Part shown: positions 24,268-62,848 of the stretch, in pieces
Position numbering within the stretch: the first letter of the stretch is position 1
Layout: each line of letters starts with the position of its first letter
DNA from: Candidatus Deferrimicrobiaceae bacterium
Lineage (GTDB): Bacteria > Desulfobacterota > Deferrimicrobia > Deferrimicrobiales > Deferrimicrobiaceae
Assembly (NCBI GenBank): GCA_963792415.1
Contig: CAWBVY010000001.1
Span: 62,025 to 126,024 of the forward strand
Direction: 5' to 3'
DNA: 64,000 nt
Notes under the pieces: model-generated
What the model saw: only the letters and a program-made list of their open reading frames with translations
Told to the model about the DNA's origin: nothing
The model's database searches: none
Made by a program: the position numbers and the translations under genes

Positions 24268-24271
<4 letters not shown>

Positions 24272-25656
24272 GGGGCGCTCTGGGTGTGGGCCAGGTAGAC
24301 GACGTTCCGGGTGGATTCCTTCCCGCGGTACATCGCCTGGTCCGCGAGGGTGAGCAGGTTCTGCTTCGTGGTCGCGTGCTCGGGGAACGCCGCGATCCCC
24401 ACGGAGATCGTCAACCGGATCCGGAGCCCCTCCTCGTTGACGAACACCTCCTCTTCGACCATCTTCCGCATTCTCTCGGCGACGATCATCGCCTCGTGCG
24501 CGTTGGTCTCGACGAGGAGGACGACGAACTCGTCCCCTCCGTAGCGGACGACCGTGTCGGAATCCCGGACGCACGCGCGCAGGACCGTCCCCACCTCCAC
24601 CAGGACGCGGCTGCCGATGAGATGGCCGTGGGCGTCGTTGACCCGCTTGAAGAAATCGATGTCCATGAAGAGGACGCAGAAGAAGTTCCGGTACCGCTCG
24701 GACCGCTTCATCTCCCGGTCGAGGACCACGTTCAGGTAGCGGCCGTTGTACAGCTTCGTGAGGTCGTCGATGTAGATCAGGCTCTGCGCCTGCGCGTTGC
24801 GTTCCGCGTTGATCAGGGCGAGGCGCGCCTGCCGCTGGAAGAAGTTGAGCAGCGACGAGTTGAGGGCCTCCGAGTCGGGTGTGCCCCGCAGCCCCAGCAA
24901 GGCGTATACCCTGGACCCCGGGCCGAGGTCGAAGGGCACGGAGAGGAGGATGCGGTTCTCCGAGAGGAACCCCGCGCCGCCGGACGCGGACGCGTTCAGC
25001 GTGTCGGCGTGGGTCAAGGTCAGGCCGGGACCCGGCGTCGCGAGCTTCTCCCCGAAGCGCCGGAGAAAACCGGCGGGAACGATGTCATCGGGGAACCCGA
25101 GGGACGCGAGCATCGCGCACGGCCCTCCCCCCTTCTCCCCTCCCCGGAAAAGGATCCCGAAGGAAGATCCCAGCGCTTCGCGGAACTTTTCGAGGATCGT
25201 GGGGGCCAGCAGAGCCATGTCGGTCGAGGTGATCACCGGGATGCAGAAGTCGAACATTTCGTCGAGCGACAACCTCCGGTGCAGTCCGTAGCCCGAGAAG
25301 AGGTACTTCTCGACGCACGGGACGACGGTTTGCGCAAGGGATTCCTCGAAGAGGATCTCGGACACCCCGCCTTTCAGGGCTTTGACGACCGACGGGCCTT
25401 CCTTCTCCCCGAGGATGAGGATCATCGAGGTCTTGGAGGCAAGCGCAAGGAGGTCCTTCACGTACGCCTCCGTCCCCTGTTCCTTCGAGAATTTCCGGGC
25501 GACGATGACGGAGAAATTTTCCTTGCGGAGGGCTTCCGCGCCGCTTTTCCAGTCGGAGAGGATCGAGAAATGCACACCCTTCATGGAGGGAACCCGAACC
25601 ATCTCCTCGATGCGATTCGCGTCGGGGGCGAGGATCAGGACGCGTTGGGCGGTCAT
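24268..25656 (-). CDS. Diguanylate cyclase: pseudo-receiver N-domain, a middle domain, and a GGDEF domain with intact active site and I-site.
   Basis: RYGGDEF active-site motif, RDSD (RxxD) I-site and a DxLT motif. The start is taken at [12 protein letters not shown], with a GGAG RBS 7 nt upstream. Confidence 0.8.
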
Positions 25657-25702
25657 CGGCGCACTCCAGCGCCGCACAGGAGAATCCGCGGCAGGGAAAC
25701 CG

Positions 25703-41020: not shown

Positions 41021-41090
41021 GCGGCGCACCCCACTCACCTACGAAATGCGCTCCCTGGGGTACCCCCGCCGTAGGAAGAACGGGGGGTAC
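41021..41090. repeat. Repeat module 2, copy B, in inverted orientation relative to copy A; overlaps the last about 18 codons of mogA.
   Basis: Reverse complement matches 9067-9138. It contributes the aberrant MogA tail …GGDCTPRSSYGGGTPGSAFRR. Confidence 0.75.
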
Positions 41091-41568
41091 AGTCGCCGCC
41101 TTCGCCGCGGATCTTTTCGATCGCGTGGGGGAGGGCGGGAAGAAGAACCGCCAGGTTCTCCGTGGCGCCGCCGGGGCTCCCCGGCAGGTTGACGATCAGC
41201 GTCTTCCCGCGGATGCCGACCACGGCGCGGGACAGCATCGCCGCGGGTACCCGCTTGAGGCTTTCCGCCCGCATCGCCTCCGCCATCCCGGGTACTTCCC
41301 GGTCCAGGATCTCCCGGGTGGCGTCCGGCGTGACGTCGCGCGGGTCGACCCCCGTTCCCCCGGTAGTCACGACCAGGTCGAGCTCGAGCGCGTCGCAGAA
41401 GTGGAGAAGGGCGCGGCGGATGAAGGAAACCTCGTCGGGGATCACCACCTGCTGCGCGATCTCCGCGGGAAGCGACCGGAGCATCTCCGCCACGGCGGGA
41501 CCGGAAGCGTCGGGACGCTCCTTCCGGAACGACCGGTCGGACATGGTGATCACGGCGGCGCGGAACAC
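41035..41568 (-). CDS. mogA: Molybdopterin adenylyltransferase MogA/MoaB family
   Basis: 177 aa with …AAVITMSDRS… and the TTGGTG motif. GTG start with a GAGGGG RBS. The C-terminal about 18 aa are encoded by the repeat element. Confidence 0.85.
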   Translation of the reverse strand: MFRAAVITMSDRSFRKERPDASGPAVAEMLRSLPAEIAQQVVIPDEVSFIRRALLHFCDALELDLVVTTGGTGVDPRDVTPDATREILDREVPGMAEAMRAESLKRVPAAMLSRAVVGIRGKTLIVNLPGSPGGATENLAVLLPALPHAIEKIRGEGGDCTPRSSYGGGTPGSAFRR

Positions 41569-41578
41569 GCGGCGCCCC

Positions 41579-43018
41579 TCAGTTCTTCAGGATGTTCGAC
41601 TTGAAGATCAGCTTCTCGTGGTCGTCGCCGTCTTCCGGGAACGAGGCGTGGCCGAACCGCACCTCGACGCGCGCGTCCCTGGCGCGGCGGCGGATCTCCT
41701 CGGCCTCGGCGGCGATCGCCTTCTTGATGCGCGGGATCGCGCTGATCTTGCCGTCCTCCGCCTCGGGAAGGATCATCCCGAACTTCGCCTCGCTGATCCG
41801 GGCCACGATGTCGTACTCGCGAAGGGTGGCGCGGATCGCCTTCGCCACCTGCTTCATCACCCAGTCCGCGCGACCGGCGCGGGAACGCGATCCCGCAGGC
41901 ACGTGCGCCTGGATCTCGCAGATCATCAGGACGAGTCGCCGCTGGAACCGCTTCGCCCGGCTGATCTCGTGCAGCAGGCGCTCCTGGAAATACTTGAGGG
42001 TGGGCAGCGAGGTCGTCTCGTCGAGGTTCCTCAGCCGGTCGTTCCGCTCGTAGGCGATCGCGTTCGCGACCGCCTTCTCGACGTACTTCAGGAATTTTCC
42101 GAACGTCGCGAGGTCCTCGGGGGTGAACGAGGAGGGGAAGAACGTCTTGTGGGGAAACTTGTCGAAGATCGTGGCGGTCCCGAGAATCTCCCCGTCACCC
42201 TGGAGCGGAATGCACGCGAGCGTCCGGGCGACCCCGGAGAATTCCTGCCAGCCGGGCTCCTGCGAGGCGTCGCGCACGAGCACGGACGGCTCCCCCTTGA
42301 GGACGGCGGTAACCGCCTTCTTGTCCATGAGGAAGAGGTCCTTCTGCTCCCCTTCCGTCTTCATCCCGTAGTACTCGCGAATCCCGTACTTCCCGGTTTC
42401 CGGGTCGAGCAGGCGGATGACGCACGTCTCGGCCTCGAGGATGAGGCAGGCGGAGGTGGCCACCAGCTTGAGAAGCCTGGTCAGGTCGAGCGTCGAGATG
42501 ATGTTGATCCCCGCCTCGTTGATCGCGGCGATCTTCGTCATCCGGAGGGCGGCGGACTCCTCCCGCAGGGACACCCCCACCGCGTCCGAGAGGAGGACGG
42601 CGGCGTCGGTGACCACCGACAGTTTCTCCTCGGGGAACTCCCCCTCGGAGACCGTCTGCACGACGAGCACCCCGTTGGGCTCCCCGGAGGAGAGGAGCGG
42701 GAACATCAGGACCGTCCCCCGCTTGCGGCTGTTCTCCGGCCTTTTCCCTTCGGAGAGGATGATGGGACGGTGCTCGGCGAGGCTGAGTTCCTCGAGCGTG
42801 CCTTCCGCCGGGAAGTGGAATTCCGGGGCGCCCGGCGTCGCGCGGCGGGTGCTGGTGCGAACGTAGAAGTCCTCGCTGTCGCGATCGAACAGGAGGACGG
42901 AGACGGTGCCCCCGCCGAGCCAGGCGGACAGCTCTCCGGAAAATTCCCGCAGACGTTCCTCGATCGGCTTCGCCGAGCGGAGGATCTCCCCGGCCTTTCT
43001 CGTGAAATCGTCGGGCAC
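41579..43018 (-). CDS. GAF-domain protein with a C-terminal degenerate GGDEF domain (no GGDEF motif; probable c-di-GMP-related regulator rather than a cyclase)
   Basis: 479 aa. Tandem GAF-like regions, then a GGDEF-fold with RISEAKFGMIL in place of RxGGDEF. Confidence 0.7.
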   Translation of the reverse strand: MPDDFTRKAGEILRSAKPIEERLREFSGELSAWLGGGTVSVLLFDRDSEDFYVRTSTRRATPGAPEFHFPAEGTLEELSLAEHRPIILSEGKRPENSRKRGTVLMFPLLSSGEPNGVLVVQTVSEGEFPEEKLSVVTDAAVLLSDAVGVSLREESAALRMTKIAAINEAGINIISTLDLTRLLKLVATSACLILEAETCVIRLLDPETGKYGIREYYGMKTEGEQKDLFLMDKKAVTAVLKGEPSVLVRDASQEPGWQEFSGVARTLACIPLQGDGEILGTATIFDKFPHKTFFPSSFTPEDLATFGKFLKYVEKAVANAIAYERNDRLRNLDETTSLPTLKYFQERLLHEISRAKRFQRRLVLMICEIQAHVPAGSRSRAGRADWVMKQVAKAIRATLREYDIVARISEAKFGMILPEAEDGKISAIPRIKKAIAAEAEEIRRRARDARVEVRFGHASFPEDGDDHEKLIFKSNILKN

Positions 43019-43019
43019 G

Positions 43020-44135
43020 CTATTCCCCGTCCATCGTTACCCGGATCCGCAGCCGGACCGGGTTTCCCGCCGAGTCGAGGAACAGCGCCGGCAAAACGGC
43101 CTGCCCGCCGGGAGCGACGAAGGGCGTCTCGAACTTGAGAAAGGTGAGTCCCGATCCCTCGTCGTCGGCGGACACCGTGAAGGACGGCGGCGGGACAGGC
43201 TCGGCAACGGATGGCGGTGGAATTGGCGGTGGTGCAGGAGCTGCCGGCGGCGGTGGTGGCGGCGGTTCGGGCCCCTTTTCCGGGATCTCGACGTCGATCA
43301 CCGAAAGTTCCTCGAACTCCACGGCCGGTTTCGGCGCTTCCGAAGACCGGAGCGTGGTCGGCTGCAGGTCGACCTCGGCAACAACGGGGTCGGGCGACGC
43401 CGCGGGGGCGACCTCGCCGCCTTCCCGGATCTCCTCGACGTCGGAAATTTCCTCGAGGGGCTCGGCCTCCTGCGGGCCGAAGGTCTTCCCGATCCGCGCG
43501 TCGGCGAGTTCCCCCAAATCGTCGTGCGCCGCCATCTCCCCCGGCATCAAAAGGGTTTTCCTGAGGTGGGAGAAGACCATCCTGGAGATCCCCACCAGCG
43601 TCTCGGTCACCCCCTTGCCGGTGGGCGCGACCGCCTCGAATGTGGGAACGTGGAGGAAATTCAGCGCGGTGTCCAGTTCCGCAACGGGGGCGGCGTTCCG
43701 GAGGTCCCGCTTGTTGTACTGGAGGACGAACGGGAGTTCCTCGAGCTTCTTCCCGTAGGACGAGAGGTTGTCCATCAGGTTCTTCAGGCTCTCCATGTTG
43801 CTGTTGACCATCTCCCGCTGGGAGTCCGCGACGAACACGACCCCATCCACGCCCTGGAGCACCAGCCTCCGGGTGGCGTTGTAGAACACCTGCCCGGGCA
43901 CCGTGTAGAGATGGAAGCGGACCTTGAACCCCTTGATCTGCCCCAGCTCGATCGGGAGGAAGTCGAAAAAGAGGGTCCGGTCGGTCTCGGTGGGAAGGGA
44001 GATCAGGCGCCCCTTCTGCTCCGGGCGCAACATCTTGTGGACGATCTCGATATTGGTGGTCTTGCCGGAGAGGCCCGGGCCGTAATAGACGATCTTCGCG
44101 CTGAGCTCGCGGGTCGCGTAGTTGAAGAGGGCCAT
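43020..44135 (-). CDS. mglA: MglA-like Ras-family small GTPase with a 170-aa C-terminal extension (acidic linker, poly-Pro tract, small C-terminal domain)
   Basis: The N-terminal about 195 aa are nearly identical in pattern to MglA (KIVYYGPGLSGKTTN…LISLPTETDRTLFFDFLP…TVPGQVFY…QYNKRDL). It then continues in frame with …PEPPPPPPPAAPAPPPIPPP… and about 55 more residues. Confidence 0.85.
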   Translation of the reverse strand: MALFNYATRELSAKIVYYGPGLSGKTTNIEIVHKMLRPEQKGRLISLPTETDRTLFFDFLPIELGQIKGFKVRFHLYTVPGQVFYNATRRLVLQGVDGVVFVADSQREMVNSNMESLKNLMDNLSSYGKKLEELPFVLQYNKRDLRNAAPVAELDTALNFLHVPTFEAVAPTGKGVTETLVGISRMVFSHLRKTLLMPGEMAAHDDLGELADARIGKTFGPQEAEPLEEISDVEEIREGGEVAPAASPDPVVAEVDLQPTTLRSSEAPKPAVEFEELSVIDVEIPEKGPEPPPPPPPAAPAPPPIPPPSVAEPVPPPSFTVSADDEGSGLTFLKFETPFVAPGGQAVLPALFLDSAGNPVRLRIRVTMDGE

Positions 44136-44151: not shown

Positions 44152-44628
44152 TTAGTGACGCTGCGCCAGCAGCCGTCTTGCCTCCTGCCGCACCACGGCC
44201 GAAAGGCTGCGGTTTTGCGACAGGACCTTCAACTCGCTGGTCTGGTACGACTTCAGGAACCGGATCGCGGCCGGCGGCGGGGTCCTCGGGTTCTGGACCA
44301 GCGCGCTGATTACCAGCCGGTTCGCCGTCCATTGCCGGCCTTCGGCGATGAACCGGAGCACATCCTCGTGGGTCAGGGAGGATGCCGCGTAGGAGATGAT
44401 ATCGTCCTCCGTCACTTTCGGGCTTCCGATCACCGCGCGGGCCACCATGCTGCTCGCGTCCCGCGACAGGATCCGGCGGACCTCCCGGTTCCCCTTGACC
44501 GCGAGCTCCACCTTCTCGGGCACGGAGAGCCGGGCGACCTGCGAGGCGATGGAACTGCGCTCCTCCTCGCCGATCTGCCGCTCCTCCGTCAGGTTCGGTC
44601 CGGCCTGCGCGACTCCGGGACCTTTCAC
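44152..44628 (-). CDS. Hypothetical alpha-helical (HEAT-like repeat?) protein, 158 aa
   Basis: Non-biased sequence (…LSVPEKVELAVKGNREVRRILSRD…EDVLRFIAEGRQW…ISALVQNPRTPPPAAIRFL…) hidden inside an R-rich 737-aa table ORF. GTG start overlapping the EF-G paralog stop (GTGA), preceded by a purine-rich RBS. Confidence 0.5.
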   Translation of the reverse strand: MKGPGVAQAGPNLTEERQIGEEERSSIASQVARLSVPEKVELAVKGNREVRRILSRDASSMVARAVIGSPKVTEDDIISYAASSLTHEDVLRFIAEGRQWTANRLVISALVQNPRTPPPAAIRFLKSYQTSELKVLSQNRSLSAVVRQEARRLLAQRH

Positions 44629-46709
44629 TCCTCCTCCTCTTCCCCCATCTCCTTCTTCGACTCGGCGATCACCTTCTCCGCGATGACGGCCGGGGTCTCC
44701 TCGTAGTGTGACACCTTCATCGTAAATTGTCCGCGCCCCGAGGTGATCGAACGGAGATCGGACGAATAGCGGAGGACCTCCGCCAACGGCACCTGGCACC
44801 GGACGATCTGGCTCTTCCCGAGGGCGTCCACCCCAAGGACCCGTCCGCGGCGCCCGTTGAGATCCCCGATGATGTCCCCGACGTTCTCCTCCGGGATGAC
44901 GACCTCCATCTCCGCGATCGGCTCGAGAAGGACCGGCTTGGCGGCCAGCGCCGCTTTCTTGAAGGCGAGGGACCCGGCGATCTTGAACGCCATCTCGGAG
45001 GAATCGACGTTGTGGAACGAGCCGTCGAAGACGGTGGCCTTCACGTCCACCACCGGGTATCCCGCGATGACCCCCTTGCCCATCCGCTCCACGATCCCCT
45101 TTTCCACCGCCGGGATGTATTGGCGCGGGATCGACCCGCCCACGATCCCGTCCACGTACTCGAACCCCTTCCCGCGCGGCTGCGGCTCGAGGCGGATCCA
45201 GCAGTCGCCGTACTGCCCGCGGCCGCCGGTCTGCTTCTTGTGCTTCCCCTGGGCTTCGGCCTTCCCCTTGAGCGTCTCGAGGTAGGCGATCTTCTGCGTG
45301 CGCAGCTCCACCTCGACGCCGTACACGCGCTTCAGCTTCTCGACGGCCACCTCGACGTGGGTCTCCCCCATCCCCGCGAGGATGAATTCGTTCGTCTGGG
45401 GATCCTTGCGGAAACGGAGGGTCGGGTCCTCCTCGATCATCCGGGAGAGGGAGCTTCCCAGCTTGTCCTCGTCGTTGCGCGTCTTCGGACGGACGGCGAA
45501 GGAGATGACCGCCTCCAGGGGGGACGGCCGCTCGAAGACGATCGGGGCCTTCGGATCGCACAGGGTGTCTCCCGTGGAAGTCTCCTTGAATTTCGCCACC
45601 GCGACGATCTCCCCCGCGGAGGCCGACCCGAGCCCCTTCTGCTTCTTCCCCTCCAGCCGCAGAATCTGCCCGATCCGCTCCACCGCGTCCTTGCTCGAAT
45701 TCAGCGGGGACATGTCCGGCGTGAGCGTGCCGGAGAAGATCTTGAAGATGGAGAGCTTCCCCGCGTACGCGTCCGCCAGCGTCTTGAAGACCTGGCCGGA
45801 GAACGGCGCGTTCACGGAGATGGGCCGGTTCTCGGCGGCCTTCTTCTTCGGGTTGGTCCCCTCGACCTCTCCCCGGTACGAGGGATCCGGAAGGGCGAAG
45901 TTGACGAGGTCGAGCACCGGCTGGATCGCGATGTTGCGCAACGCGGAGCCGTAAAGGACCGGGAGGAACCGCATCGCCCGCACCCCCGCGCGGAAACCGG
46001 CCCGGATCTCCTCGTCCGTGAGGGCGGTCCCCTCGAGGAACTTCTCGATCAGCGCGTCGTCGGACTCGGCGCACGATTCGACGAGCTTCTCCCGGGCGCT
46101 CGAGGCATCGGCGGCCAGGTCGGCGGGGATCTCCTGGAGGGTGAACTCGCCGGTGTCGCCCTTGTACACCATCGCCTTCATCCGGAACAGGTCGACCACG
46201 CCGCGGAACCCGGCCTCCTTCCCGAGCGGCAGCTGCACGGGCACCGCGGGCACCTTCAGGATGTCGGCGATCTCCTCGACCGCCTTCGCGGGGTCGGCGC
46301 GCTCCCGGTCCATCCTCGAAATGAAGGCGATCACCGGGACGTCCGCCGCCCGCGCCAGGTTCCACATCTTCTCGGTCTGGACCTCCACGCCGGAGACGGC
46401 GTTCACGACGAGGATCGCGCCGTCCAGCACCTTGAGGCAGGACCGGGTGTCCGCCTCGAAGTTGATGTAGCCGGGGGTGTCGGCGAGGGTGACCTCGACC
46501 TTGTCCCAGGCGTAGTGATGGAAGGAGGTGCTGATCGTGATCTTCCGCCGGATCTCCTCCGGGTCGTAGTCGAAGTTGGAGCTCCCGTCGTCCACCTTGC
46601 CCATCCTGTCCGTCGCCTTCGCGTTGAACAGAAGGGCCTCCGCCAGCGTCGTCTTTCCCGCTCCTCCGTGCGCGATGATGCCGACGTTCCGGATCTGCTG
46701 GATATCCAC
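44625..46709 (-). CDS. Elongation factor G family translational GTPase (EF-G paralog)
   Basis: 694 aa with G1 AHGGAGKTT, DTPG, NKMD and EF-G domains II-V. Divergent from canonical fusA (AHGGAGKTT rather than AHIDAGKTT). GTG start with a TAGGAGG RBS. Confidence 0.85.
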   Translation of the reverse strand: MDIQQIRNVGIIAHGGAGKTTLAEALLFNAKATDRMGKVDDGSSNFDYDPEEIRRKITISTSFHHYAWDKVEVTLADTPGYINFEADTRSCLKVLDGAILVVNAVSGVEVQTEKMWNLARAADVPVIAFISRMDRERADPAKAVEEIADILKVPAVPVQLPLGKEAGFRGVVDLFRMKAMVYKGDTGEFTLQEIPADLAADASSAREKLVESCAESDDALIEKFLEGTALTDEEIRAGFRAGVRAMRFLPVLYGSALRNIAIQPVLDLVNFALPDPSYRGEVEGTNPKKKAAENRPISVNAPFSGQVFKTLADAYAGKLSIFKIFSGTLTPDMSPLNSSKDAVERIGQILRLEGKKQKGLGSASAGEIVAVAKFKETSTGDTLCDPKAPIVFERPSPLEAVISFAVRPKTRNDEDKLGSSLSRMIEEDPTLRFRKDPQTNEFILAGMGETHVEVAVEKLKRVYGVEVELRTQKIAYLETLKGKAEAQGKHKKQTGGRGQYGDCWIRLEPQPRGKGFEYVDGIVGGSIPRQYIPAVEKGIVERMGKGVIAGYPVVDVKATVFDGSFHNVDSSEMAFKIAGSLAFKKAALAAKPVLLEPIAEMEVVIPEENVGDIIGDLNGRRGRVLGVDALGKSQIVRCQVPLAEVLRYSSDLRSITSGRGQFTMKVSHYEETPAVIAEKVIAESKKEMGEEEEE

Positions 46710-52282: not shown

Positions 52283-55200
52283 TCATGGTCCCTTCCCTTC
52301 CTTCGCCTTCGCCGTCATCGTCTCTTCCAGGAGCGCCTGCGCGGTCTCCAGCCGCTTCCGGATCGGAACCGCGAGGTCCGCGGGCCCCTTCTCGTCCTCG
52401 AGCCGGTCCAGCGCGCCGGCGTACCGGTCGAGGGACCGTTCGTAGAACGATCGCGCCCGATCCCGCAACGCCTCCTCGTATCCATCGCGGTCGTCCCCTT
52501 TCAGACCTTTCGGCCGCTGGGAGGCGAGGATCGCCTTCCCGTACTCCACGAGGAGATCGCCGGATAGAAGAGAGGCCTGGAGCGCCACCTCGAGAGGGGC
52601 CTCGCTCTCCGCCTTTTCGAAGTCGCCGAGAGCCCGCCGGAAGAACCGGTCCTTGATGGCGAGACTCTTCTCGAGGGGGACACGGAGGGGCGTCTTGCGG
52701 AACTGTTCGGCCCAGTTCTCCCCGACGGCGATGCGAACCTTCCCCGCCAATTCCGCGAACTCCTCGGGCGCCTCCGCTTCCACGCCCGCGTCCGCTTTTC
52801 GCAGCCCTTCCTCCATCAGGCGGATCGACGCCTTCGTCTCCCCCCGCCGCCAGCCGGCCAGCCCCGTGTACAAGGTGGCGTACGTCCACTTCCAGCGTGG
52901 GTCCGCGTACCGCGCGCGATAGGCATTGAAGCGCTTTTCCGCCGCCCCGGGAGGGCCGTGCTCTTCCGCGAGGCGCGCGGCGTGGAAGAGGAACCGCGGC
53001 GCGGCCTCGCCCTTCGGGAACCTCTCCGCCACGGCCTCGTAGAGTTCCCCGGCCTCGGCGAACTCCCCCTTCTCCTCGAAGAGGGGGCCGACCACGCTCG
53101 CCACCTCCACGGTTTCCTCCCTTCGGGGAAACTCTTTCCGGAAACGGAGGCCGGAACGGATGGCCCCTTCCGGATCCCCCCCCTTTGCGTACAACCGCAT
53201 CGCCCGGAGCAGGTAGATCGGGACCTCCGGCGCCCCGGGGAAACGGATGGAGACCTCCTCGAGCACGGCCGCCGCGCCCGACAGGTCTCCCGCGGCCTCC
53301 TTTCCACCCGCCTCCTTCAGGGAGGAGAGGAGATAGAGATCCTTCGCCCGGGCGCCTGCGCCGGCCCCGACCGAGGGGTCCGAAAGGACGACCGAAGACC
53401 CGCTCCTCGCGGCGACCACATTCCCCTCGAAGAGGGCGGACTCGGCCAGAACCAGGCGAGCCTGGGCGGTCTGCGCCGGGGTGGCGTACCGGCTCCTCTC
53501 GACTTCCGCCGCTACGCGCCGCGCGCGATCATTCTCCCGGGCCGACAGGAACGCGCTCGATGCCCGAAGCCCGAGGGAGGCCGACTTTTCGGAGGGATGT
53601 TCCTCGAGAAGAAGCAGGATGGCGTATTCCGCGCCCCCGGCGGGCGTCTCCTTCCTCTCGTACCCGGCGATCATCGTCTCCGCGTACAGGACGGCCGCCC
53701 GCTCCCCGGTGGCGTCCGACCTCCGCTCTCCCACCAGTTTTTCGAGGAGCAGCACCCCGCCTTCCCGGTCCCCCGAGCCGAGGAGAGCGATGGCCCACTT
53801 CAGGCGAAGTTCCCCATCCCCGTCCGACCGGTCATCCCCCTTCACCAGGAAATACTCCCTCGTCAATGCGGCGGACGAGGAAAGCGCCGAGCGTTCCCCG
53901 GAGCGGATCCCCTCGTCGAATTTTTTCCCGGCGAGGGTCCTGAGCATTGCAGCCAGTTCCTTTGCGGTCTTCTCTCCGACCGGGGCCGGCTGCGACCGTG
54001 CCCAGGCCGAATCCGGTCCGTACTTCCCGCGCAGGGTCAGGGCGCGGTCGAGCGCCTCCCTTTCCCGCCCGACCCGCAGGAGCGACTCCACCGTCTCCAT
54101 TTCGAGGGCCGCAGCGTTCGCGTCCGACGGGAATCGCCGGGCCGCGACGTCGCGCACTTCCGCCGCCCGCAAGGCCTCGCCGCGTTTCTCCTCGGCCTCC
54201 CAGAGGGCGGCGAGGAGGACCTTCCCGCCGCACGTCCCGGCGTTCACGGGGGGGTACGCGTCCAGCCGTTCCAGGGGCGCCTCCCTCCATGCGCGGACCG
54301 AAAGGGAGACGACCTCCCTTTCGAAGGGCGACGGGACACCGCAGGGGAACGAGGGATCGGAAAGGGGTCGGGACAATTCCCGGAGCGCCCCGCCGGCATC
54401 CCCGGACTGGAACCGGACCCAGGCCAGCATGTACCTGGCGACGGCGGAAGCGTCCGGGTTCCCGGCATCCGAGGCCGCGCGGTACCGTGAGATCGCCGCC
54501 GCGGTATCCCCGGCCAGGAGCGCCTCGTGCCCGAGGCGGACTCCGATCACGGCGGAGAGCGGAGAGGCGGGGTACTTCTGGAGGTACTCCCGCGCGGCGG
54601 ACCCGGCGCCCGGGTCTTTCACGGCCAGCCCCAGGGCCGCTCGCAGGTAGAGTCCCTCCTCCCGTCTCGCCCCGGAAACCCCTTCCCGCGGGAGGAGCGG
54701 GAGAACGCGCGCGATCAACTCCTTCTCCTTCTCGTCGGCTTCCGTGCCCGGATACCGTGTCCACCGGTCCCTTCCCTCGGAAAGAACGGAGCCGATCCCG
54801 ATGGCGACGTCGGGCGCGTCCGCCGGCGCGAGGCGGTCGCCGGTCAGGAGGGAAACCGCGCGTCCGAGGGCGGCGAGGGATTCCCCGTGGGCCGGCTCTC
54901 CCGGCTCCAACCGCAGCCGGCGGGCCTGTCCGATCAGGGCGTCCGCCAGCTGACGGTCGACCACGGCAAGAAGGGCGAGCAACTCCGGCTTCCTCCGCTC
55001 CCAGGCGGCGGCCCGCTCCCTTTCCTCCAGGGTTCGCACGACCGGAAGGAGCGCGGTCACGCGGCCGTCGGCGTACGCGATCGATTCCCGCATCACATGG
55101 TCGAGGGGATCCTCCGCCGGCTCCTGCTTCTTCCTCAGGATGTCGAAGTACTGCTTCGTGAAATCCCGCGTTTCGGCGGCCATGGACCGGATCTTGTCCA

Positions 55201-56656
55201 GCTCGTTCAGGAAGAGTCCCACGTCCTTCAGGAGTCCGGGGGCGGTCCCGTCCCTGCCGGTCTCGATGGTGGCTACGGTCGCATCCCGCCGCTCCCGGAT
55301 CCGCTCCCGGAGAAGGTGGATCTCTTCCTGGCTCTTTTCCAGGCGCGTGAGGCGGCGGTATCGCTGGATCGGGTGGCCGAGGTTCTGGAGGGTATCGAGC
55401 GTGGCGGCCATCCGCTCCACCAGGCGGTCGACCTCGATGCCGTCCAGGGACACCTCCTCGATCCTCCGGACGATCTCCGCGATCTCCTCCGCGGTGAGGA
55501 ACCGGAGACCCTCGGGGGACGGCGTGTCCGCCGCTGCCAGGGAGACCGTCCGGTCGGCAAAGAGCATGCCGACCAGGAGTTCCACCACCTCGGCGCGCGC
55601 CGACGCGTCCGGCCCGGGCTCCCGCCAGGAGAGTTCCTGCCGGAGGGCCCGCAGCATCTCCATCTGAAGCCGGAGGGACTCGACGGTTTCGGAACGGCCC
55701 GACGGCTCGGAGGAAGGAGGCGACGGCACGGACAATGCGTCTTCCAGCTCCTTTCCTGCCCGGGTCAGGCGGTCGACCGCCGTCTCGTCGCGCCCGCTTT
55801 CCCTTGCGAGCCCCCCGAGAAGGAGGAGGAACCGGACCCGGTCCTCGAGGGGCCGCCCGGCGATCATCTCGGCCGGCAGATGGTCGAGGGCATGCACGGA
55901 ATTGTCCCCGGCGGCGGCCAGGCCGATCCGGTCCAGCGGGTTCTTCTCTTTCCACAGCAGGGCCTCGAACAGTGGCACTGCCTCGGGGCCGCGTCCGGCC
56001 GCAAGCAACACTTCCGCCCGCGATCTCGATGCCCTCGCCGCAAGAAAGTCGCTCCATTCGCTCCTCCCGGCCTCTTCTTCCACGCGTTGGAAGAGGTTCA
56101 GCGCCGTCGAGGTTTCCCTCCCCTCGGAGGCGATCTGGCCGAGGGAGTACAGGGCGAGGAGCCGGTACGGCTCTTCCGTTCCGACCTGGGCCAGGATGGC
56201 GGAGGCATCCCCCAGCCGTCCCCGGATCCGCCGCAGCCCCGTGCCGTAGGAATACAGGATCAGGGGCGTCCGGATCCCGCTGCGGATGGCGGTCTCGCAG
56301 ACCGCGACGAGGCGTTCGGGATCGTCGTATCGTCCCTGCGCGCTGACGACTTCATCGAAGAGCGGCGCCGCCGCCGTCGCCGGGAACACGCCCAGGCCGA
56401 CCCTCCGTTCGAGAAGCGATGCCGCTTCCGCAAGGAGCCCCAGGGACATGTATCCCTTGAAAAGGGAGCGGGTGCCGTCGATGGTCACCGCGTCGGACGC
56501 CTCGAGACGTGCCATTTCGGTGAGGGAGACGCCGGCACTCGCCGGGAACGGGATGGCAATAACCGAAAACAGGATCGCGCAGGCGAGGAAAGAGAGGAAG
56601 GGTCGTCCGGCGGCTATGGGGGAGAGGGTCGTTTCACGTTTCGAATTGGATTTCAT
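52283..56656 (-). CDS. Very large (1457 aa) secreted TPR/alpha-solenoid protein
   Basis: Signal peptide (…FLACAILFSVIAIPFPASAG). Continuous non-biased alpha-helical repeat sequence over 4.4 kb. GAGG RBS. Confidence 0.7.
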   Translation of the reverse strand: MKSNSKRETTLSPIAAGRPFLSFLACAILFSVIAIPFPASAGVSLTEMARLEASDAVTIDGTRSLFKGYMSLGLLAEAASLLERRVGLGVFPATAAAPLFDEVVSAQGRYDDPERLVAVCETAIRSGIRTPLILYSYGTGLRRIRGRLGDASAILAQVGTEEPYRLLALYSLGQIASEGRETSTALNLFQRVEEEAGRSEWSDFLAARASRSRAEVLLAAGRGPEAVPLFEALLWKEKNPLDRIGLAAAGDNSVHALDHLPAEMIAGRPLEDRVRFLLLLGGLARESGRDETAVDRLTRAGKELEDALSVPSPPSSEPSGRSETVESLRLQMEMLRALRQELSWREPGPDASARAEVVELLVGMLFADRTVSLAAADTPSPEGLRFLTAEEIAEIVRRIEEVSLDGIEVDRLVERMAATLDTLQNLGHPIQRYRRLTRLEKSQEEIHLLRERIRERRDATVATIETGRDGTAPGLLKDVGLFLNELDKIRSMAAETRDFTKQYFDILRKKQEPAEDPLDHVMRESIAYADGRVTALLPVVRTLEERERAAAWERRKPELLALLAVVDRQLADALIGQARRLRLEPGEPAHGESLAALGRAVSLLTGDRLAPADAPDVAIGIGSVLSEGRDRWTRYPGTEADEKEKELIARVLPLLPREGVSGARREEGLYLRAALGLAVKDPGAGSAAREYLQKYPASPLSAVIGVRLGHEALLAGDTAAAISRYRAASDAGNPDASAVARYMLAWVRFQSGDAGGALRELSRPLSDPSFPCGVPSPFEREVVSLSVRAWREAPLERLDAYPPVNAGTCGGKVLLAALWEAEEKRGEALRAAEVRDVAARRFPSDANAAALEMETVESLLRVGREREALDRALTLRGKYGPDSAWARSQPAPVGEKTAKELAAMLRTLAGKKFDEGIRSGERSALSSSAALTREYFLVKGDDRSDGDGELRLKWAIALLGSGDREGGVLLLEKLVGERRSDATGERAAVLYAETMIAGYERKETPAGGAEYAILLLLEEHPSEKSASLGLRASSAFLSARENDRARRVAAEVERSRYATPAQTAQARLVLAESALFEGNVVAARSGSSVVLSDPSVGAGAGARAKDLYLLSSLKEAGGKEAAGDLSGAAAVLEEVSIRFPGAPEVPIYLLRAMRLYAKGGDPEGAIRSGLRFRKEFPRREETVEVASVVGPLFEEKGEFAEAGELYEAVAERFPKGEAAPRFLFHAARLAEEHGPPGAAEKRFNAYRARYADPRWKWTYATLYTGLAGWRRGETKASIRLMEEGLRKADAGVEAEAPEEFAELAGKVRIAVGENWAEQFRKTPLRVPLEKSLAIKDRFFRRALGDFEKAESEAPLEVALQASLLSGDLLVEYGKAILASQRPKGLKGDDRDGYEEALRDRARSFYERSLDRYAGALDRLEDEKGPADLAVPIRKRLETAQALLEETMTAKAKEGKGP

Positions 56657-56978
56657 CCCCGACCTCGGTCCCCGTTCTCTCGATGGTGCCCGCCGGCAGC
56701 TCGAGGACCCCCCGGGCGTTCCAGAAGACCCTGGAAATGCGGTTCCTGCGGAACCGTTCGTACCGTCCCACCACCTTCCCGTCCGGACCGAGAAAGAGCG
56801 CGTCGAACTCGAAACGCATCCCGAAAGAGTGGATGCTGTTGCACGGCCGGATCCAGAGCCCCTCCCCCTCCGCGAGCCCGTCGGTCCGGAGGAGCCCTCT
56901 CATCCGCGGGAAGAATCGGTCCGCCACCCGGACGGCGTCGCCGATGACCCGCCCCCGCGTGAGGTTCCTGACGATCAT
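56634..56978 (-). CDS. DUF192-domain protein (COG1430)
   Basis: 114 aa with conserved DUF192 features (…GLW…PCNSIHSFGMRFEFDALFL…). Confidence 0.6.
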   Translation of the reverse strand: MIVRNLTRGRVIGDAVRVADRFFPRMRGLLRTDGLAEGEGLWIRPCNSIHSFGMRFEFDALFLGPDGKVVGRYERFRRNRISRVFWNARGVLELPAGTIERTGTEVGDEIQFET

Positions 56979-57005
56979 CGGAACGGCCTGGAACCTTGTC
57001 AGTCG

Positions 57006-57101
57006 CTACTTTTTCCCGGTCCGCCGGGACCTTACGTAGATGTAAATCGCGAGAACGACACAAAAAACAACGATCCAGGGAAGGGCATTGCCCAGATCCA
57101 T
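57006..57101 (-). CDS. Small single-TM membrane protein, 31 aa (MDLGNALPWIVVFCVVLAIYIYVRSRRTGKK)
   Basis: AGGAGG, then 6 nt, then ATG. Hydrophobic helix followed by a basic C-tail. It overlaps the tadC 3' end in another frame. It was hidden in a long spurious table ORF. Confidence 0.55.
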   Translation of the reverse strand: MDLGNALPWIVVFCVVLAIYIYVRSRRTGKK

Positions 57102-58084
57102 GTCCGACCTCCTTTGTTGGTTGCCACGGTCATTTTTGAATAGAGCGGAAAAAGTATCCTCAAGACCTGGATGACACCCGGCCCGAGAATGACGATGAAC
57201 AACGCCGGGAACATCAGGAACACGAGCGGGAATACGAGCTTGATGGTCGTCTTCGCCGCGGCCTCTTCGGCCTTCTGCCGACGCCGCATCCGCAGGGAGT
57301 CGGAGTGGACCCGCAGGGACTGCGCGAGGCTCGTCCCCAGTTTCTCCGTCTGGATCAGCATCGCAACGAGGGACTTGACGTCCTCCACCCCGGTTCTTTC
57401 CGTAAGAGCCCGCAACGCATCCTGCCGGGGTTTCCCCGCCACCATCTCCCGGTTGACGATGTCGAACTCTTCGCTCAACGCGGGACTGGAAAGCTTGAAT
57501 TCCTCCGTGATCTTTACGAAGGAGGCGTTCAGCCCGAGGCCCGCCTCGACGCAGACGACCAGCAGGTCCAGTCCGTCCGGGAGGGAGTCCGTGATCTCCT
57601 CCTGGCGCTTGCGGATCTTCGCTCGAAGCACGAAATCCGGAAGGAGAAACCCGGCGATTCCCGCCACGAGGACCATCAGGAAGATCGACTTGCTCGCAAT
57701 CCCGGTGACCTTCCCGTAGACCACGGCAAGGACCACCAGAACGACCGGCAACGCCCAGCGAACCCCAAGGTAGATCTGATACGCTCCCGAGCTCCGGATC
57801 CCCGCCTGGTTCAGGAGGAGGCGTCCGCCGGTAAGTTCCTTCCCCGAAAGCATCTCCACAAGTTCGATTTCCGTGGGCGCTTTCGCGGAAAACCACTTCC
57901 GTACCTTTCCGAGCCACTCTCCCGCGGATGCCACAATCCGGCCGCGGGGAGCGTCCGCCTCCTCCCCCACGATCTCCTTGAACCGTTGCGGCAGCGACTC
58001 CTTCCGGGATTCCAGCCACAGGTACAACCCGATCGATCCGATTGCCGTCGCCAGGAAGATCGAAACCGACAAGAAGAGAATCAA
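57032..58084 (-). CDS. tadC: Tad/Flp pilus assembly protein TadC (T2SS-F family)
   Basis: 350 aa polytopic GspF-like protein. The C-terminal about 25 aa overlap the small ORF and may not all be real. Confidence 0.8.
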   Translation of the reverse strand: MILFLSVSIFLATAIGSIGLYLWLESRKESLPQRFKEIVGEEADAPRGRIVASAGEWLGKVRKWFSAKAPTEIELVEMLSGKELTGGRLLLNQAGIRSSGAYQIYLGVRWALPVVLVVLAVVYGKVTGIASKSIFLMVLVAGIAGFLLPDFVLRAKIRKRQEEITDSLPDGLDLLVVCVEAGLGLNASFVKITEEFKLSSPALSEEFDIVNREMVAGKPRQDALRALTERTGVEDVKSLVAMLIQTEKLGTSLAQSLRVHSDSLRMRRRQKAEEAAAKTTIKLVFPLVFLMFPALFIVILGPGVIQVLRILFPLYSKMTVATNKGGRTWIWAMPFPGSLFFVSFSRFTST

Positions 58085-58097
58085 GGGTTCCCCCGTC

Positions 58098-59060
58098 TCA
58101 GATCTTGATCCGGATGATCTTGCGGATGGCCAGCATCCCGAGGATCTGCAGTGTCACGGCGATGGCGATCATGATCCTTCCGGTCCCCTCGAACCAAAGC
58201 GGTTTCAGGTACTCCGGGTTCATGATCCCGATGAGGACGGCCACTCCGATCGGAAGAAGCGAAAGGATGAATCCGCTCATTCGCGCCTGGGCCGTGAAGA
58301 TCTTGAGCTGTCCCTGGACGCGGAACCGTTCCCGGATCACATAGGCGATCTTGTCGATGATCTCGGCGAGGTTTCCTCCCGTTTCCCGCTGGATCAGGAT
58401 CGCCGTGACGAAGAACTTGACGTCGAGGATGTCGACCCGGTCCGTCATCCCGATGAGAGCCTGTCGAAGGGGAATCCCCAGGTTCTGCTCTTCGAACACC
58501 TTCGAGAACTCGGGGCCGATCGGATCCGGCATCTCCTGGGAGACGAGCTGGATGGCGCCCGTGAACGAGTGGCCGGCCCGCAGGGAGCGGGCGAACATTT
58601 CGAGCGCTTCCGGGAAGTGATTCATGAACCGTTTCAACCGGCGTCGCCGCCTGATGTCGACGATGAGGTTGGGAACGGTGAGCAGGCCGATGCCGACGAC
58701 GACCGACAGGATGGTTGGCCAGTGCAGGATGCGGCCGGCAACGATGCCCACGGAAAAGAGGACCAGGGAGAGGAGGAGGAACGTGCCCACCGGGATCTTC
58801 ATGTCCGCCTGCCGCAACCGCCGGTCGATCCTGGCGGCGATATTCACCCTCGACAGAAGCCGGTTGAGCAGCGGAACTTCGCTCAGCACCTCGTTCTTCA
58901 GGAATTCCGGAACATCCGCGTCCCGCAGGTTGCGGATTTCGAGCAGCGAGATCCTTCTCTTGACCTCCGCTTTCTCGCTGCGCCCGGCCGACAGGAGGAA
59001 GTACCCCCCGACAACCGCCAGGAGAACCAGCGCGAAGACGGCAATGGGGATCCAGATCAT
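58098..59060 (-). CDS. tadB: Tad/Flp pilus assembly protein TadB (T2SS-F family)
   Basis: 320 aa GspF-like membrane protein. Confidence 0.8.
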
Positions 59061-59073
59061 CCTCGGCCTCCCC

Positions 59074-60441
59074 TCACGATTTCCGGTTCGCGAAGATCTC
59101 GGAAGGGAGGTGGATCCCCGCCATGTGGATCATGTCGAGGAACTTCGGCCGGACGCCGCTTGCCCGGAACTGGCCGATGACCTTCCCCTCGGGATCGAGA
59201 CCCTGCTTTTCGAAGACGAAGATGTCCTGCATCACCACCACCTCCCCCTCCATGCCGGTCACCTCGGAGACCTTGACGATCTTCCGGGCGCCGTCGCTCA
59301 GGCGCGCCACCTGGATGATGACGTTCAGCGCGGCGCTGACCTGCTCCCGGATCGCCTTGGCGGGAAGTTCGAATCCCGCCATCAGGACCATGGTTTCGAG
59401 GCGGGAAAGGGCGTCCCGCGGCGAATTGGCGTGGACGGTGGAGATGGAGCCGTCGTGGCCGGTATTCATCGCCTGGAGCATGTCCAGCGCCTCGCCCCCG
59501 CGCACCTCGCCCAGGATGATCCGGTCGGGGCGCATCCGGAGGGCGTTGCGCACCAGGTCCCGCTGGGTCACGGCCCCCCTTCCCTCGATGTTGGGGGGCC
59601 GGGTCTCGAGCCGCACCACGTGCTCCTGCTGGAGGATGAGCTCGGCGGAATCCTCGATCGTCACGATCCGATCGTCGTTGGGGACGGAGGAGGACAGGAT
59701 GTTCAGCAAGGTGGTCTTGCCGGCGCCCGTGCCGCCCGACACCAGGATGTTGAGCCGCGCCCGCACCATCGCGTCGAAAACCTTCGCCATCTCCTCCGTC
59801 AGCGACCCGTTGGCGACCAGGTTCTCCATCCTCAGCGGGTCGATGCCGAAGCGCCGGATGGAGAGCGCCGGCCCGTCCAGCGCGAGCGGGGGGATGATGA
59901 CGTTGACGCGGGAGCCGTCGGGCAGCCGGGCGTCGACAAAGGGCGTGGACTCGTCGACCCGCCGCCCCACCTTGGAGACGATCCGTTCGATGATCGTCAT
60001 CAGGTGGTCGTCGTCCTTGAAGGTGACCTCGGTCTTGTGCAGCTTCCCGTGCTTCTCGATGTACACCTTCTCCGCCCCGTTGACCATGATGTCGGAGATC
60101 TCGGGATCCTGGAGGAGCGGCTCCAGGGGGCCGAGTCCCAGGGTCTCGTGCTGGATCTCGACGACCAGCCGCTCCCGCTCCATCCGGGTGAGCGGGATCC
60201 CCTCGGCGGCGATGAGGCTTTCCACGACGGTCTTGATGATCCCCGAGAGCTGCTCCGGGGAGATCTCGGCGACGGAGGAGAGGTCCAACCGGTCGATGAG
60301 CTTGCGGTGGATGCTGCTTTTGAGCTCCTGGTAGGCGTTCATCTCCGCCGCCGCGACGCTGCGGCGCTGCGCGAGGTCTCCGAACGCCGTGGCGGCACCG
60401 GCACCGTTTTTCTTCGACGCCATCCATTCGTTGATCGTCAT
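59074..60441 (-). CDS. tadA: Tad/Flp pilus assembly ATPase TadA/CpaF
   Basis: 455 aa with Walker [10 protein letters not shown] and Asp/His boxes of the T2SS-E/VirB11 family. Confidence 0.9.
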
Positions 60442-60442
60442 C

Positions 60443-61639
60443 TCACACGCCTCTCCGCCGGAAAAGGTTGTCCAGGATCCCCTTCTTCTTCTCCGGGACC
60501 GCCTTCTTCGGCGCCGGCCCTTCCAGCAGCTCCGCCATCCGGTCGAAGCTTTTGGTGACCTCCTTGTCCGGGGCGACTTCCGAGAGGAGCTTCCCGCGGT
60601 TGATGGAGGAGATCACGGTCGGGTAGTCGTTGGGAACGGAAAAGAAGACCGGGGTGTTCATGATCCCCTCGATGCTCTCCTTCGGGATCTCGTCGTTCGG
60701 AAGGTAGCGGCTGAGGAGGAGCCGCACCCGCTCGTCGCGCAGCCCGATCCGCCCGAAGAGCTCCAGGCACTTCTGGGTGTTCTTCAGGGAAGGGAGGTTC
60801 AGCAGGGACACGAGCAGGACGATGTCGGACATCTCCAGGGCCGTCAGCGTCCGCTCGTCGAACTGGTGCGGCGTATCCACGATAATGTAGTCGAACATCG
60901 ACCGCAGCGTCGAGAGGACCTCCCGCACCTGGGCCGGGGAGATCTGCTCCCCGTCCTCGATGGTCGGCGGGTCGGCCAGGACGTAGACCCCGCTGGCGTG
61001 CCGGACGAGGAGCGTGTGCAGGAAGTCGTAGTCGGCCTTCTCCGCGTTCTTCGCCAGGTCCAGGATGGAATAGGACGAGTTCACGTTGAAGAACATCGTG
61101 ACGTCGCCGTGGGAGAGCACGAGGTCGACCACGGCGACCTTTTTCCCCGTAAGCCGGACCAGGGCGTCCGCGAGGTTCACGGCGATCGTCGTCGTCCCGT
61201 TCCCCCCCTTGTTGCTGAAGACGGAGAGGATCTTCCCCCCGCGGCCCCCCGATTCCTTCCGGGTCGCCTTGAGCTTGGACGCCTTCTCCGCCGCCGCCCG
61301 GAGGTCGATCTCCTTGACCGGCTTGCAGAGGTAATCGTGCGCACCGGCGCGGATCGTCCGCAGGATGAGGTCGGAGTCGGTCCGGTCGGAGAGGGCGACG
61401 AGATACAGGAACGGGAAATCCTTCGCCATCGTGGAGATCGACTCGATCGCCGGTTCGGGGGTGGGGCCCAGCCCGATGATCACCATTTCGGGAAGGTGCA
61501 TCCGGATGATGTCGATGCCGGTCTTGACGGAGTGCGTCTTCCAGCGCACCTCGATGGCGCCGATCCGCTTGCTCAGGATGTCGATCTGCCGGATCGCCTC
61601 CTGGTCCGTCTCGATGATCAGGCAACTGATGCGGTTCAT
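60443..61639 (-). CDS. tadZ: Tad/Flp pilus assembly protein TadZ/CpaE (receiver-like N-domain plus MinD/ParA-type ATPase)
   Basis: 398 aa. The ParA-like P-loop is [14 protein letters not shown]. Confidence 0.85.
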
Positions 61640-61646
61640 TCCTCTC

Positions 61647-61988
61647 CTATTCCACCAGGGAGATGACTTTCACTTCCGTACCCGTGAGGGGACCGCCGCC
61701 GCCGCTGGAGGATCCGCCGAAGGCAGATCCGGGGATGTATCTTCCCGTCACGTAACCGTCTCCCCCTTGCCTCCCCACACCTTCGATCCAGAACCCGGCG
61801 AGAGTGTACCCGACCTGGACGGAGGCGCCCGTTCCCTGCGTTCCACCGGCGCCCCCACCGACGATGGGAATGCTCGGATCATAGATGACGACCCGAACGA
61901 CCCGGGGGGATCCCATTTCGTGGGTATTGGTAGCGTAGTCGCTCGGAAATGTTTGGCTGTAACCTTGCGCATTTGCATCATCGAGCAA
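61647..61988 (-). CDS. Gly-rich hypothetical protein (113 aa), possibly the frameshifted C-terminal continuation of the TadG-like gene
   Basis: Its frame is open from directly after the TadG-like stop (…GIRGFAR*/KVYEALLDDANAQGY…). No ATG start; TTG only. Confidence 0.35.
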   Translation of the reverse strand: MLDDANAQGYSQTFPSDYATNTHEMGSPRVVRVVIYDPSIPIVGGGAGGTQGTGASVQVGYTLAGFWIEGVGRQGGDGYVTGRYIPGSAFGGSSSGGGGPLTGTEVKVISLVE

Positions 61989-62826: not shown

Positions 62827-62848
62827 ATTCCCCTGTTCCCGCGTCGGC

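Follow-up and report, generated by a model that had tools for sequence, protein, structure and literature searches.

A group-1 MglA with a conserved C-terminal tail in the uncultured Deferrimicrobiota

Introduction

MglA is the model Ras-like polarity switch of bacteria. To our knowledge, the characterized MglA proteins are all bare G domains, and their localization and nucleotide cycling are governed by MglB, RomR/RomX, SgmX and other partners. Here we analysed an extended mglA gene (mglA-ext; 43020..44135, minus strand) in a 64,000-nucleotide stretch of DNA, referred to below as the window, from a Candidatus Deferrimicrobiaceae bacterium (contig CAWBVY010000001.1, positions 62,025 to 126,024). 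A model that had read the letters of the window had proposed that this gene encodes MglA fused to a C-terminal extension of about 170 residues with a long poly-proline tract; we refer to that proposal as the original prediction. The encoded protein, MglA-ext, carries a conserved tail of a kind for which we found no description on any MglA in the searchable literature.

Several described systems bear on this protein. Group-1 MglA proteins have the G3 motif TVPGQ in place of DxxGQ, as well as an intrinsic Arg finger next to the conserved G2 Thr (PMC4316618). The survey of prokaryotic small GTPases by Wuichet & Sogaard-Andersen (2015) covered single-domain proteins of 150-240 residues only, and longer ones were discarded (PMC4316618). 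RomR, which recruits MglA to the pole, has an unstructured Pro-rich linker and a conserved Glu-rich C-terminal region, each of which is enough for polar targeting (PMC3441718). In Myxococcus, MglB's helix at the C-terminus, or Ct-helix (residues 147-157, EISDDDIDNLF), occupies a pocket of MglA and promotes nucleotide exchange (PMC6785124). In Bdellovibrio, whose genome lacks MglB, a receptor with a degenerate GGDEF domain, CdgA, is bound by RomR as well as by Bd2492, a partner of MglA (PMC3983030).

Results

The mglA-ext gene runs from ATG to TAG as a single unbroken open reading frame (ORF) encoding 371 residues; as predicted, it contains neither an internal stop codon nor a frameshift. The guanine-plus-cytosine (GC) content at the three codon positions of the whole ORF was 0.66/0.42/0.87, which matches the coding regions of the same genome, and the third-position value is coding-like. 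The long ORFs on the opposite strand were the usual shadows of high GC content. A phmmer search of the PDB aligned residues 1-193 with residues 1-193 of Myxococcus xanthus MglA (195 residues) without a gap (E 7e-76), and the MglA of Thermus thermophilus also matched the GTPase part (E 6e-66), the homology to characterized MglA proteins covering the whole domain. The GTPase domain was assigned to residues 1-194 (43554..44135, minus strand), with Pfam matches to Arf, Ras and Gtr1 on residues 12-185. The protein reaches about 177 residues past the usual end of MglA and beyond the part that can be aligned with the M. xanthus protein, in good agreement with the predicted length of the extension.

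The core contains the P-loop GPGLSGKT with G21 and the G4 motif NKRD. Its G3 motif, T78-V-P-G-Q82 (TVPGQ), aligned with that of M. xanthus MglA, and D52-R53-T54 was invariant in a 45-sequence alignment (A2), which places the Arg finger R53 beside T54. Both features are those of group 1, and by sequence MglA-ext is a group-1 MglA in which every catalytic and switch residue is kept. Within the family of extended MglA proteins, the GTPase domains were 75-96% identical. The core most likely switches between GTP and GDP in the normal way, as its Myxococcus and Thermus counterparts do, and, by analogy with MglA in Myxococcus, Thermus and Bdellovibrio, it probably controls type IV pilus polarity.

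In a search of 5.8 billion proteins, more than 120 clusters were 72-96% identical to the query; the coverage of the query was 100% for nearly all of them, and several were annotated as Candidatus Deferrimicrobium. When the database clusters were pooled with genome and metagenome loci, the same tail layout was found in 132 distinct full-length proteins of 328 to 518 residues, the commonest form having 348. The gene occurred in the same context at 25 independent loci; the exact 371-residue protein had no record in the contig index, and the gene context was read from its relatives. The ratio of nonsynonymous to synonymous substitution rates in frame (dN/dS; pairwise NG86 method) was 0.15 in the GTPase domain, 0.29 in the helix alpha6 segment, 0.14 in acidic motif 1 and 0.35 in the C-terminal module (these elements are described below). 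The conserved segments of the tail are under purifying selection in the mglA-ext frame, and the claim that the protein is a genuine fusion held up.

The fusion could instead be an artefact, with an ordinary mglA linked to unrelated DNA downstream of it by a frameshift, a read-through or a mis-assembly. The linker is GC-rich, repeat-like and prone to errors, and four relatives (P0075, P0107, P0115 and P0134) have out-of-frame Arg-rich stretches within it. However, the identical in-frame architecture was found in more than 130 independent proteins and at 25 loci, from different studies and assemblers; the tail is under purifying selection in this very frame; and the terminal module never has its own start codon and never forms a separate gene. 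For practical purposes, an artefact of assembly or of a frameshift can be dismissed. The stretches in the four relatives, which are rich in Arg, Ser and Gly, either return to frame later or run on. They are probably indel errors in GC-rich, low-complexity assemblies, so linker lengths taken from single assemblies need care.

The conserved islands of the tail were defined from three alignments (A1, A2 and A3) together with the divergent members P0129, P0131, P0138 and P0142, which keep the helix, the motifs and the module and have a wholly different spacer. The first island, LLMPGEMAAHDDLGELADARIGKTF (residues 195-219; 43479..43553, minus strand), consists of a Pro-Gly turn after alpha5 and then an acidic helix, 'alpha6'. 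It was nearly invariant in A1 and A2, with a conservation close to that of the G domain, and AlphaFold2 (AF2) placed the helix at residues 201-219 with a modest predicted local distance difference test score (pLDDT, ~58-62). The second island is an acidic short motif, motif 1, EPLEEISDVEEIRE (residues 225-238; 43422..43463, minus strand), with the consensus EEIS[DE]xEEI. This pattern was present in 130 of the 132 relatives and was kept in the four divergent members; columns E225-I236 were nearly invariant. The third island, the motif-2 block EVDLQPTTLR...EFEELSVIDVEIPE (residues 254-286; 43278..43376, minus strand), was conserved in A1 and ends with an alternating acidic/hydrophobic stretch followed by Pro. 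It occurs in two to four copies in P0002, P0033, P0110, P0114, P0118 and P0129, and in P0103 it adjoins the terminal module directly. Across the 132 relatives, the linker measured 85-258 residues, with a Pro fraction of 5-33% and a median net charge of -19, which fits the acidic linker that had been predicted behind the GTPase. The AF2 pLDDT was below 50 over residues 223-327, and we infer that the linker is intrinsically disordered.

The tail ends with a C-terminal module (residues 318-371; 43023..43184, minus strand; core residues 330-366) that closes on GLTFLKFETPFVAPGGQAVLPALFLDSAGNPVRLRIRVTMDGE. The original prediction had described a terminal domain of roughly 55 residues, which is present, and the peptides that it quoted for the Pro-rich tract (residues 289-317) and the C-terminus are exact. 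AF2 folds the core of the module into an antiparallel beta meander of three strands (LTFLKFE, AVLPALFLD and VRLRIRV). With the 27-sequence alignment A3 as input, the strands covered residues 17-21, 32-39 and 45-52 of a 57-residue construct at a core pLDDT of ~91-93, and the full-length AF2 model contained the same three strands. In the last strand, V-R-L-R-I-R-V, residues R361, R363 and R365 alternate with hydrophobic residues to form an Arg ladder, with Lys taking their place in the most divergent members. The central strand is predicted to be hydrophobic on both faces. Such a sheet of three strands would probably not be stable by itself, and the model therefore suggests that the module pairs with or binds something.

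The module did not resemble any known family or fold in our searches. Five divergent copies gave no Pfam match even at E<=10, a profile search of the PDB gave nothing below E 0.5, and no fold match was obtained. When 1.84 billion representative proteins were searched with a profile built from the entire tail, only 23 hits were obtained, all of them MglA fusions or fragments of such fusions. Two apparent stand-alone copies (P0140 and P0141) were rejected as fragments, one split by a scaffold gap of Ns and the other at a contig end. The module is known only as the C-terminus of extended MglA. PilZ domains bind cyclic di-GMP (c-di-GMP) through an RxxxR motif followed 20-30 residues on by [D/N]xSxxG. 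The idea that the terminal domain might be PilZ-like did not survive this analysis: Pfam gave no match, the module is far below the size of the ~100-residue six-stranded barrel, and the motifs are not in order. The segment R361-LRI-R365 fits RxxxR literally, but it sits at the extreme C-terminus with nothing behind it, and the upstream D354-S-A-G does not match DxSxxG.

We hold with moderate confidence that, through its tail, a canonical MglA switch brings along its own determinant of targeting, docking or self-association. The core (residues 1-194) would cycle between GTP and GDP as a canonical group-1 MglA, and the tail would act in cis through four elements, namely the acidic helix after alpha5, the disordered spacer, the two acidic motifs and the beta module. 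Together they would provide a leash and a docking element that tethers, targets or clusters the switch, and the target may be a partner at the pole or associated with pili, the products of the same operon, or further MglA-ext molecules. In the model, the terminal module, with its Arg ladder and exposed hydrophobic faces, would serve as a binding element, a role that the motifs may share. The design is tether-like: conserved short elements and a small end module are split by a fast-evolving, charged, Pro-rich spacer. Several points weigh against this reading. The full-length AF2 monomer had a mean pLDDT of 56.7 and is silent on tail docking. The terminal module is beta whereas the C-terminus of RomR is alpha-helical, so that the likeness to RomR is an analogy only. 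In addition, synteny inside one family-level lineage is a weak sign of functional coupling, and one locus (L005) that lacks the neighbouring 158-residue gene keeps the whole tail.

The Pro tract PEPPPPPPPAAPAPPPIPPPSVAEPVPPP (43185..43271, minus strand) is a variable-length part of the predicted disordered linker. The original prediction had offered it as an SH3/profilin-type docking site or as a sequence whose translation requires elongation factor P (EF-P). In such a reading the tract itself would be functional, either as a polyproline-II dock for an SH3- or profilin-like reader or as an EF-P-dependent throttle on MglA synthesis. Runs of three or more Pro residues stall ribosomes without EF-P. 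The tract of MglA-ext contains PPPPPPP and three more PPP runs, and from general knowledge its seven-Pro run would be expected to stall ribosomes without EF-P. Nevertheless, 53 of the 132 linkers (40%) do not contain any PPP, and the longest Pro run among the relatives varies from 1 to 8. The common 348-residue form has only KPAPPS-type sequence in place of the tract, P0103 has no tract at all, and P0001, which is 96% identical to MglA-ext, already differs from it by indels in this region. Conversely, P0007 and P0097 have the Pro region enlarged as 13-residue PPPTPPPSVAVSV repeats; in mglA-ext itself, no tandem repeat of the DNA was detected in the tract. There is no conserved polyproline or PxxP core across the orthologues, and the genes around mglA-ext include none that looks SH3- or profilin-like. 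Because the tract is variable and often missing, a conserved SH3/profilin ligand is unlikely, and so is an EF-P requirement as a conserved checkpoint; we regard a function of the tract itself as very improbable. The poly-Pro run is an evolvable stiff spacer segment, not a conserved feature of the tail.

The acidic elements invite another explanation, in which the helix alpha6 or the acidic motifs bend back to MglA's allosteric pocket (alpha5, beta2 and the beta2-beta3 loop), which in Myxococcus receives the D/E-rich MglB Ct-helix, tune nucleotide exchange or GAP (GTPase-activating protein) access, and partly take over a function of MglB. D/E-rich C-terminal helices are common among coupled MglB proteins, and the Glu-rich end of RomR is similar (PMC6785124). 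The motifs of MglA-ext resemble the MglB Ct-helix SPFAEISDDDIDNLF, whose sequence we confirmed in PDB entry 6h5b_B: EPLEEISD in motif 1 compares with SPFAEISD in MglB, and FEELSxIxVE in motif 2 with FAEISDDDID. The pocket residues L64 and I67 and the basic alpha5 residues R185, R192 and K193 are present, with L64, I67 and R185 invariant in the family. No mglB was found beside the gene: within four genes of mglA-ext there is no Roadblock/LC7 gene, the Pfam family Robl_LC7 was not matched across the 64 kb of the window and the flanks that were fetched, and a tblastn search with M. xanthus MglB yielded no hit at E<=1, either in the window or at the 26 loci. However, the likeness to the Ct-helix lies within what composition can produce, since 6-18% of tail shuffles that preserved composition attained the best ungapped BLOSUM62 scores (p 0.06-0.18). 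M. xanthus K181 is V181 in MglA-ext, and motifs 1 and 2 are unstructured, not helical, in the AF2 model. Moreover, G21 in the P-loop goes with a separate MglB in deltaproteobacteria (PMC3983030), so that an MglB may lie elsewhere. A Ct-helix-like element would be a predicted helix with 2-4 Asp/Glu residues behind a disordered stretch, matched by a basic alpha5 on MglA (PMC6785124); MglA-ext has acidic motifs, a predicted acidic helix at 201-219 and the basic alpha5 residues, with a sequence likeness to EISDDDIDNLF that does not exceed composition. Autoregulation in cis is therefore a tentative proposal that we consider unlikely.

A further scheme would make MglA-ext a self-organizing protein. 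The motif of the E-I-E-V-E-I-P-E type, in one to four copies, would pair as a beta strand with the R-L-R-I-R-V edge strand of the module; paired in cis, the protein would adopt a closed, autoinhibited form, and paired in trans it would build head-to-tail multimers, a polar cluster or a condensate. Which of these prevails would be set by the core's nucleotide state or by c-di-GMP, relayed by the degenerate GGDEF protein encoded downstream. If true, this would be a self-organizing Ras-like GTPase that carries its own polar-targeting scaffold and does not need RomR-like factors. The 'charge-zipper' pairing of E-x-E-x-E with R-x-R-x-R was not predicted in the AF2 monomer, and we consider the scheme improbable.

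The gene context of mglA-ext was conserved in the order coaX, a paralog of elongation factor G (EF-G), a 158-residue orphan, MglA-ext, a GAF-GAF-GGDEF protein and MOSC/MogA, with gaps of 1-16 nucleotides around mglA-ext. The GAF-GAF-GGDEF gene (479 residues; 41579..43018, minus strand) has a GTG start 1 nucleotide past the mglA-ext stop codon. It was found downstream in 25 of 26 loci, and in the exception the contig ends there. Pfam recognizes the GGDEF fold (1.2e-17) together with GAF, and the GG[DE]EF motif of active diguanylate cyclases is lost: the sequence is SEAKF here and SEGKF, SESKF or ADGRF in the relatives (four sequences inspected). All four keep the I-site RxxD, as REYD or RDYD, five residues upstream of the degenerate motif. 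A degenerate active site combined with a kept I-site is the signature of a c-di-GMP receptor and not of a cyclase. Judging from these motifs, the GAF-GAF-GGDEF neighbour is likely to be a c-di-GMP receptor rather than a cyclase.

The 158-residue orphan gene (44152..44628, minus strand) lies 16 nucleotides ahead of mglA-ext, and its GTG start overlaps the stop codon of the EF-G paralog gene. Of the 26 loci, 25 have it upstream of mglA-ext, L005 being the exception. Its family comprises about 140 proteins, all labelled 'hypothetical', and no match was found in Pfam, NCBIfam or the PDB, even with a 31-sequence profile; a match to LRV was sub-threshold and restricted to 1 of 31 members. An NPRTP motif is invariant in the family, and there are faint hints of LRV-like sequence. 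The orphan occupies the usual place of mglB, just upstream of mglA. A distant homologue, P0257, stands instead beside DnaJ-TPR, PP2C, FHA and EAL genes.

This cassette is the ground for the explanation that the tail is an adaptor, whose module or motifs bind the GAF-GAF-degenerate-GGDEF protein, the 158-residue protein or both, and thereby form a c-di-GMP-responsive MglA hub like that of Bdellovibrio. Three adjacent genes with gaps of 1-16 nucleotides are kept as a set at 25 of the 26 loci, some of them divergent; the loss of GG[DE]EF with retention of the I-site fits a receptor; and the Bdellovibrio proteins described in the Introduction provide a precedent. On the other hand, the loci all come from one narrow lineage, in which synteny can last without function, and L005, in which the 158-residue gene and one GAF domain are missing, keeps the full tail. 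An adaptor role of this kind is possible but doubtful, while a determinant of targeting, docking or self-association, whatever its target, remains the explanation that we favour.

The EF-G paralog (694 residues; 44625..46709, minus strand; Pfam GTP_EFTU, EFG_III, EFG_IV and EFG_C) heads the gene string after coaX, outside the ribosomal-protein/str operon, and has the same position in the relatives. A MogA/MoCF gene (41035..41568, minus strand), joined by MOSC in the relatives, follows the GGDEF gene in all loci and has no obvious link to MglA. About 8 kb from mglA-ext lies a Tad/Flp-type pilus-like cluster (~52283..63484, minus strand). On the minus strand it contains genes for a secretin (62849..63484), a CpaE-like ATPase with receiver and ParA/MinD domains (60443..61639), a T2SSE ATPase (59074..60441), a T2SSF platform protein (58098..59060), a DUF192 protein (56634..56978) and a TPR protein of 1457 residues (52283..56656). 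A second GGDEF protein (24268..25677, minus strand), whose GGDEF match is strong and full-length (E 2.9e-44), is presumably an active cyclase.

In a scan of 185,579 GTDB species genomes, the tail was found in 21 species. These were Deferrimicrobiaceae or metagenome-assembled genomes labelled as unclassified 'Deltaproteobacteria bacterium', apart from one contig of a bin labelled Actinomycetota. Candidatus Deferrimicrobium is placed in the candidate phylum Deferrimicrobiota/MBNT15, and the extended-MglA family is confined to this uncultured lineage, Deferrimicrobiota (MBNT15). The Actinomycetota-labelled contig (L026, JAENIX010000198.1) is 3.2 kb long and has a Deferrimicrobiota-type cassette; it is probably mis-binned. 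Another locus (L029, JABAOD010010388.1) has a lower GC content, is more divergent and carries the same cassette, with a 55-N scaffold gap splitting the gene. Candidatus Deferrimicrobium has been predicted to form rods that bear no flagella, and it has type IV pilus genes (PMC9386147).

Discussion

A phylum-level lineage in which MglA bears a permanent leash suggests that part of the regulatory or targeting network may be hard-wired in cis. The operon structure ties this MglA to a probable c-di-GMP receptor, and the terminal module and the 158-residue neighbour are unannotated families. With 371 residues, MglA-ext exceeds the 240-residue upper limit of the survey of prokaryotic small GTPases, and it has no mglB within four genes, which that survey also used as a criterion; owing to the length cut-off, extended MglA proteins may be under-counted. 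The tail offers small, separable elements for tests, a 14-residue motif and a 40-residue module. Because the hosts are uncultured, such tests would need heterologous systems.

Among known proteins, the core is closest to group-1 MglA of M. xanthus (MXAN_1925) and T. thermophilus (PDB 5YMX/6IZW/6H17 and 3T12), with ~66% identity over the 193-residue G domain. The P-loop, R53, TVPGQ with Q82, and NKRD are the same, and the switch and interswitch regions are nearly identical. Canonical MglA proteins end at 195-197 residues, whereas MglA-ext bears a conserved tail of 177 residues, and immediately upstream, where mglB would be, it has the unrelated 158-residue orphan.

For the tail, the nearest precedent in function that this pathway offers is, by analogy, RomR. 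Both proteins combine a signalling domain with a non-conserved Pro-rich linker that varies by taxon and a short conserved end element. They differ in that the N-terminal domain here is MglA and not a receiver, and the end is a predicted beta meander and not alpha-helical; judged by structure class, the linker properties fit a RomR output domain and the terminus does not. The MglB C-terminal helix shares with the tail D/E-rich amphipathic short elements placed after disorder, the local pattern P[FL]xEISD and the retained pocket residues on MglA. Unlike that helix, the elements of MglA-ext lie in cis on MglA and not on a Roadblock-domain GAP, and the likeness is not significant after control for composition.

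FtsZ has a GTPase core, a variable disordered linker that is Pro- or acid-rich in some species, and a conserved terminal docking peptide. MglA-ext resembles it in architecture only, because fold and family are unrelated, and we know of no MglA that polymerizes. The MglA hub of Bdellovibrio (MglA-Bd2492 TPR-RomR-CdgA) likewise includes a c-di-GMP receptor with a degenerate GGDEF domain and has no adjacent mglB (PMC3983030). There the link is protein interaction and here it is gene adjacency, and the Bdellovibrio MglA has 197 residues and S21, whereas MglA-ext combines G21 with the tail.

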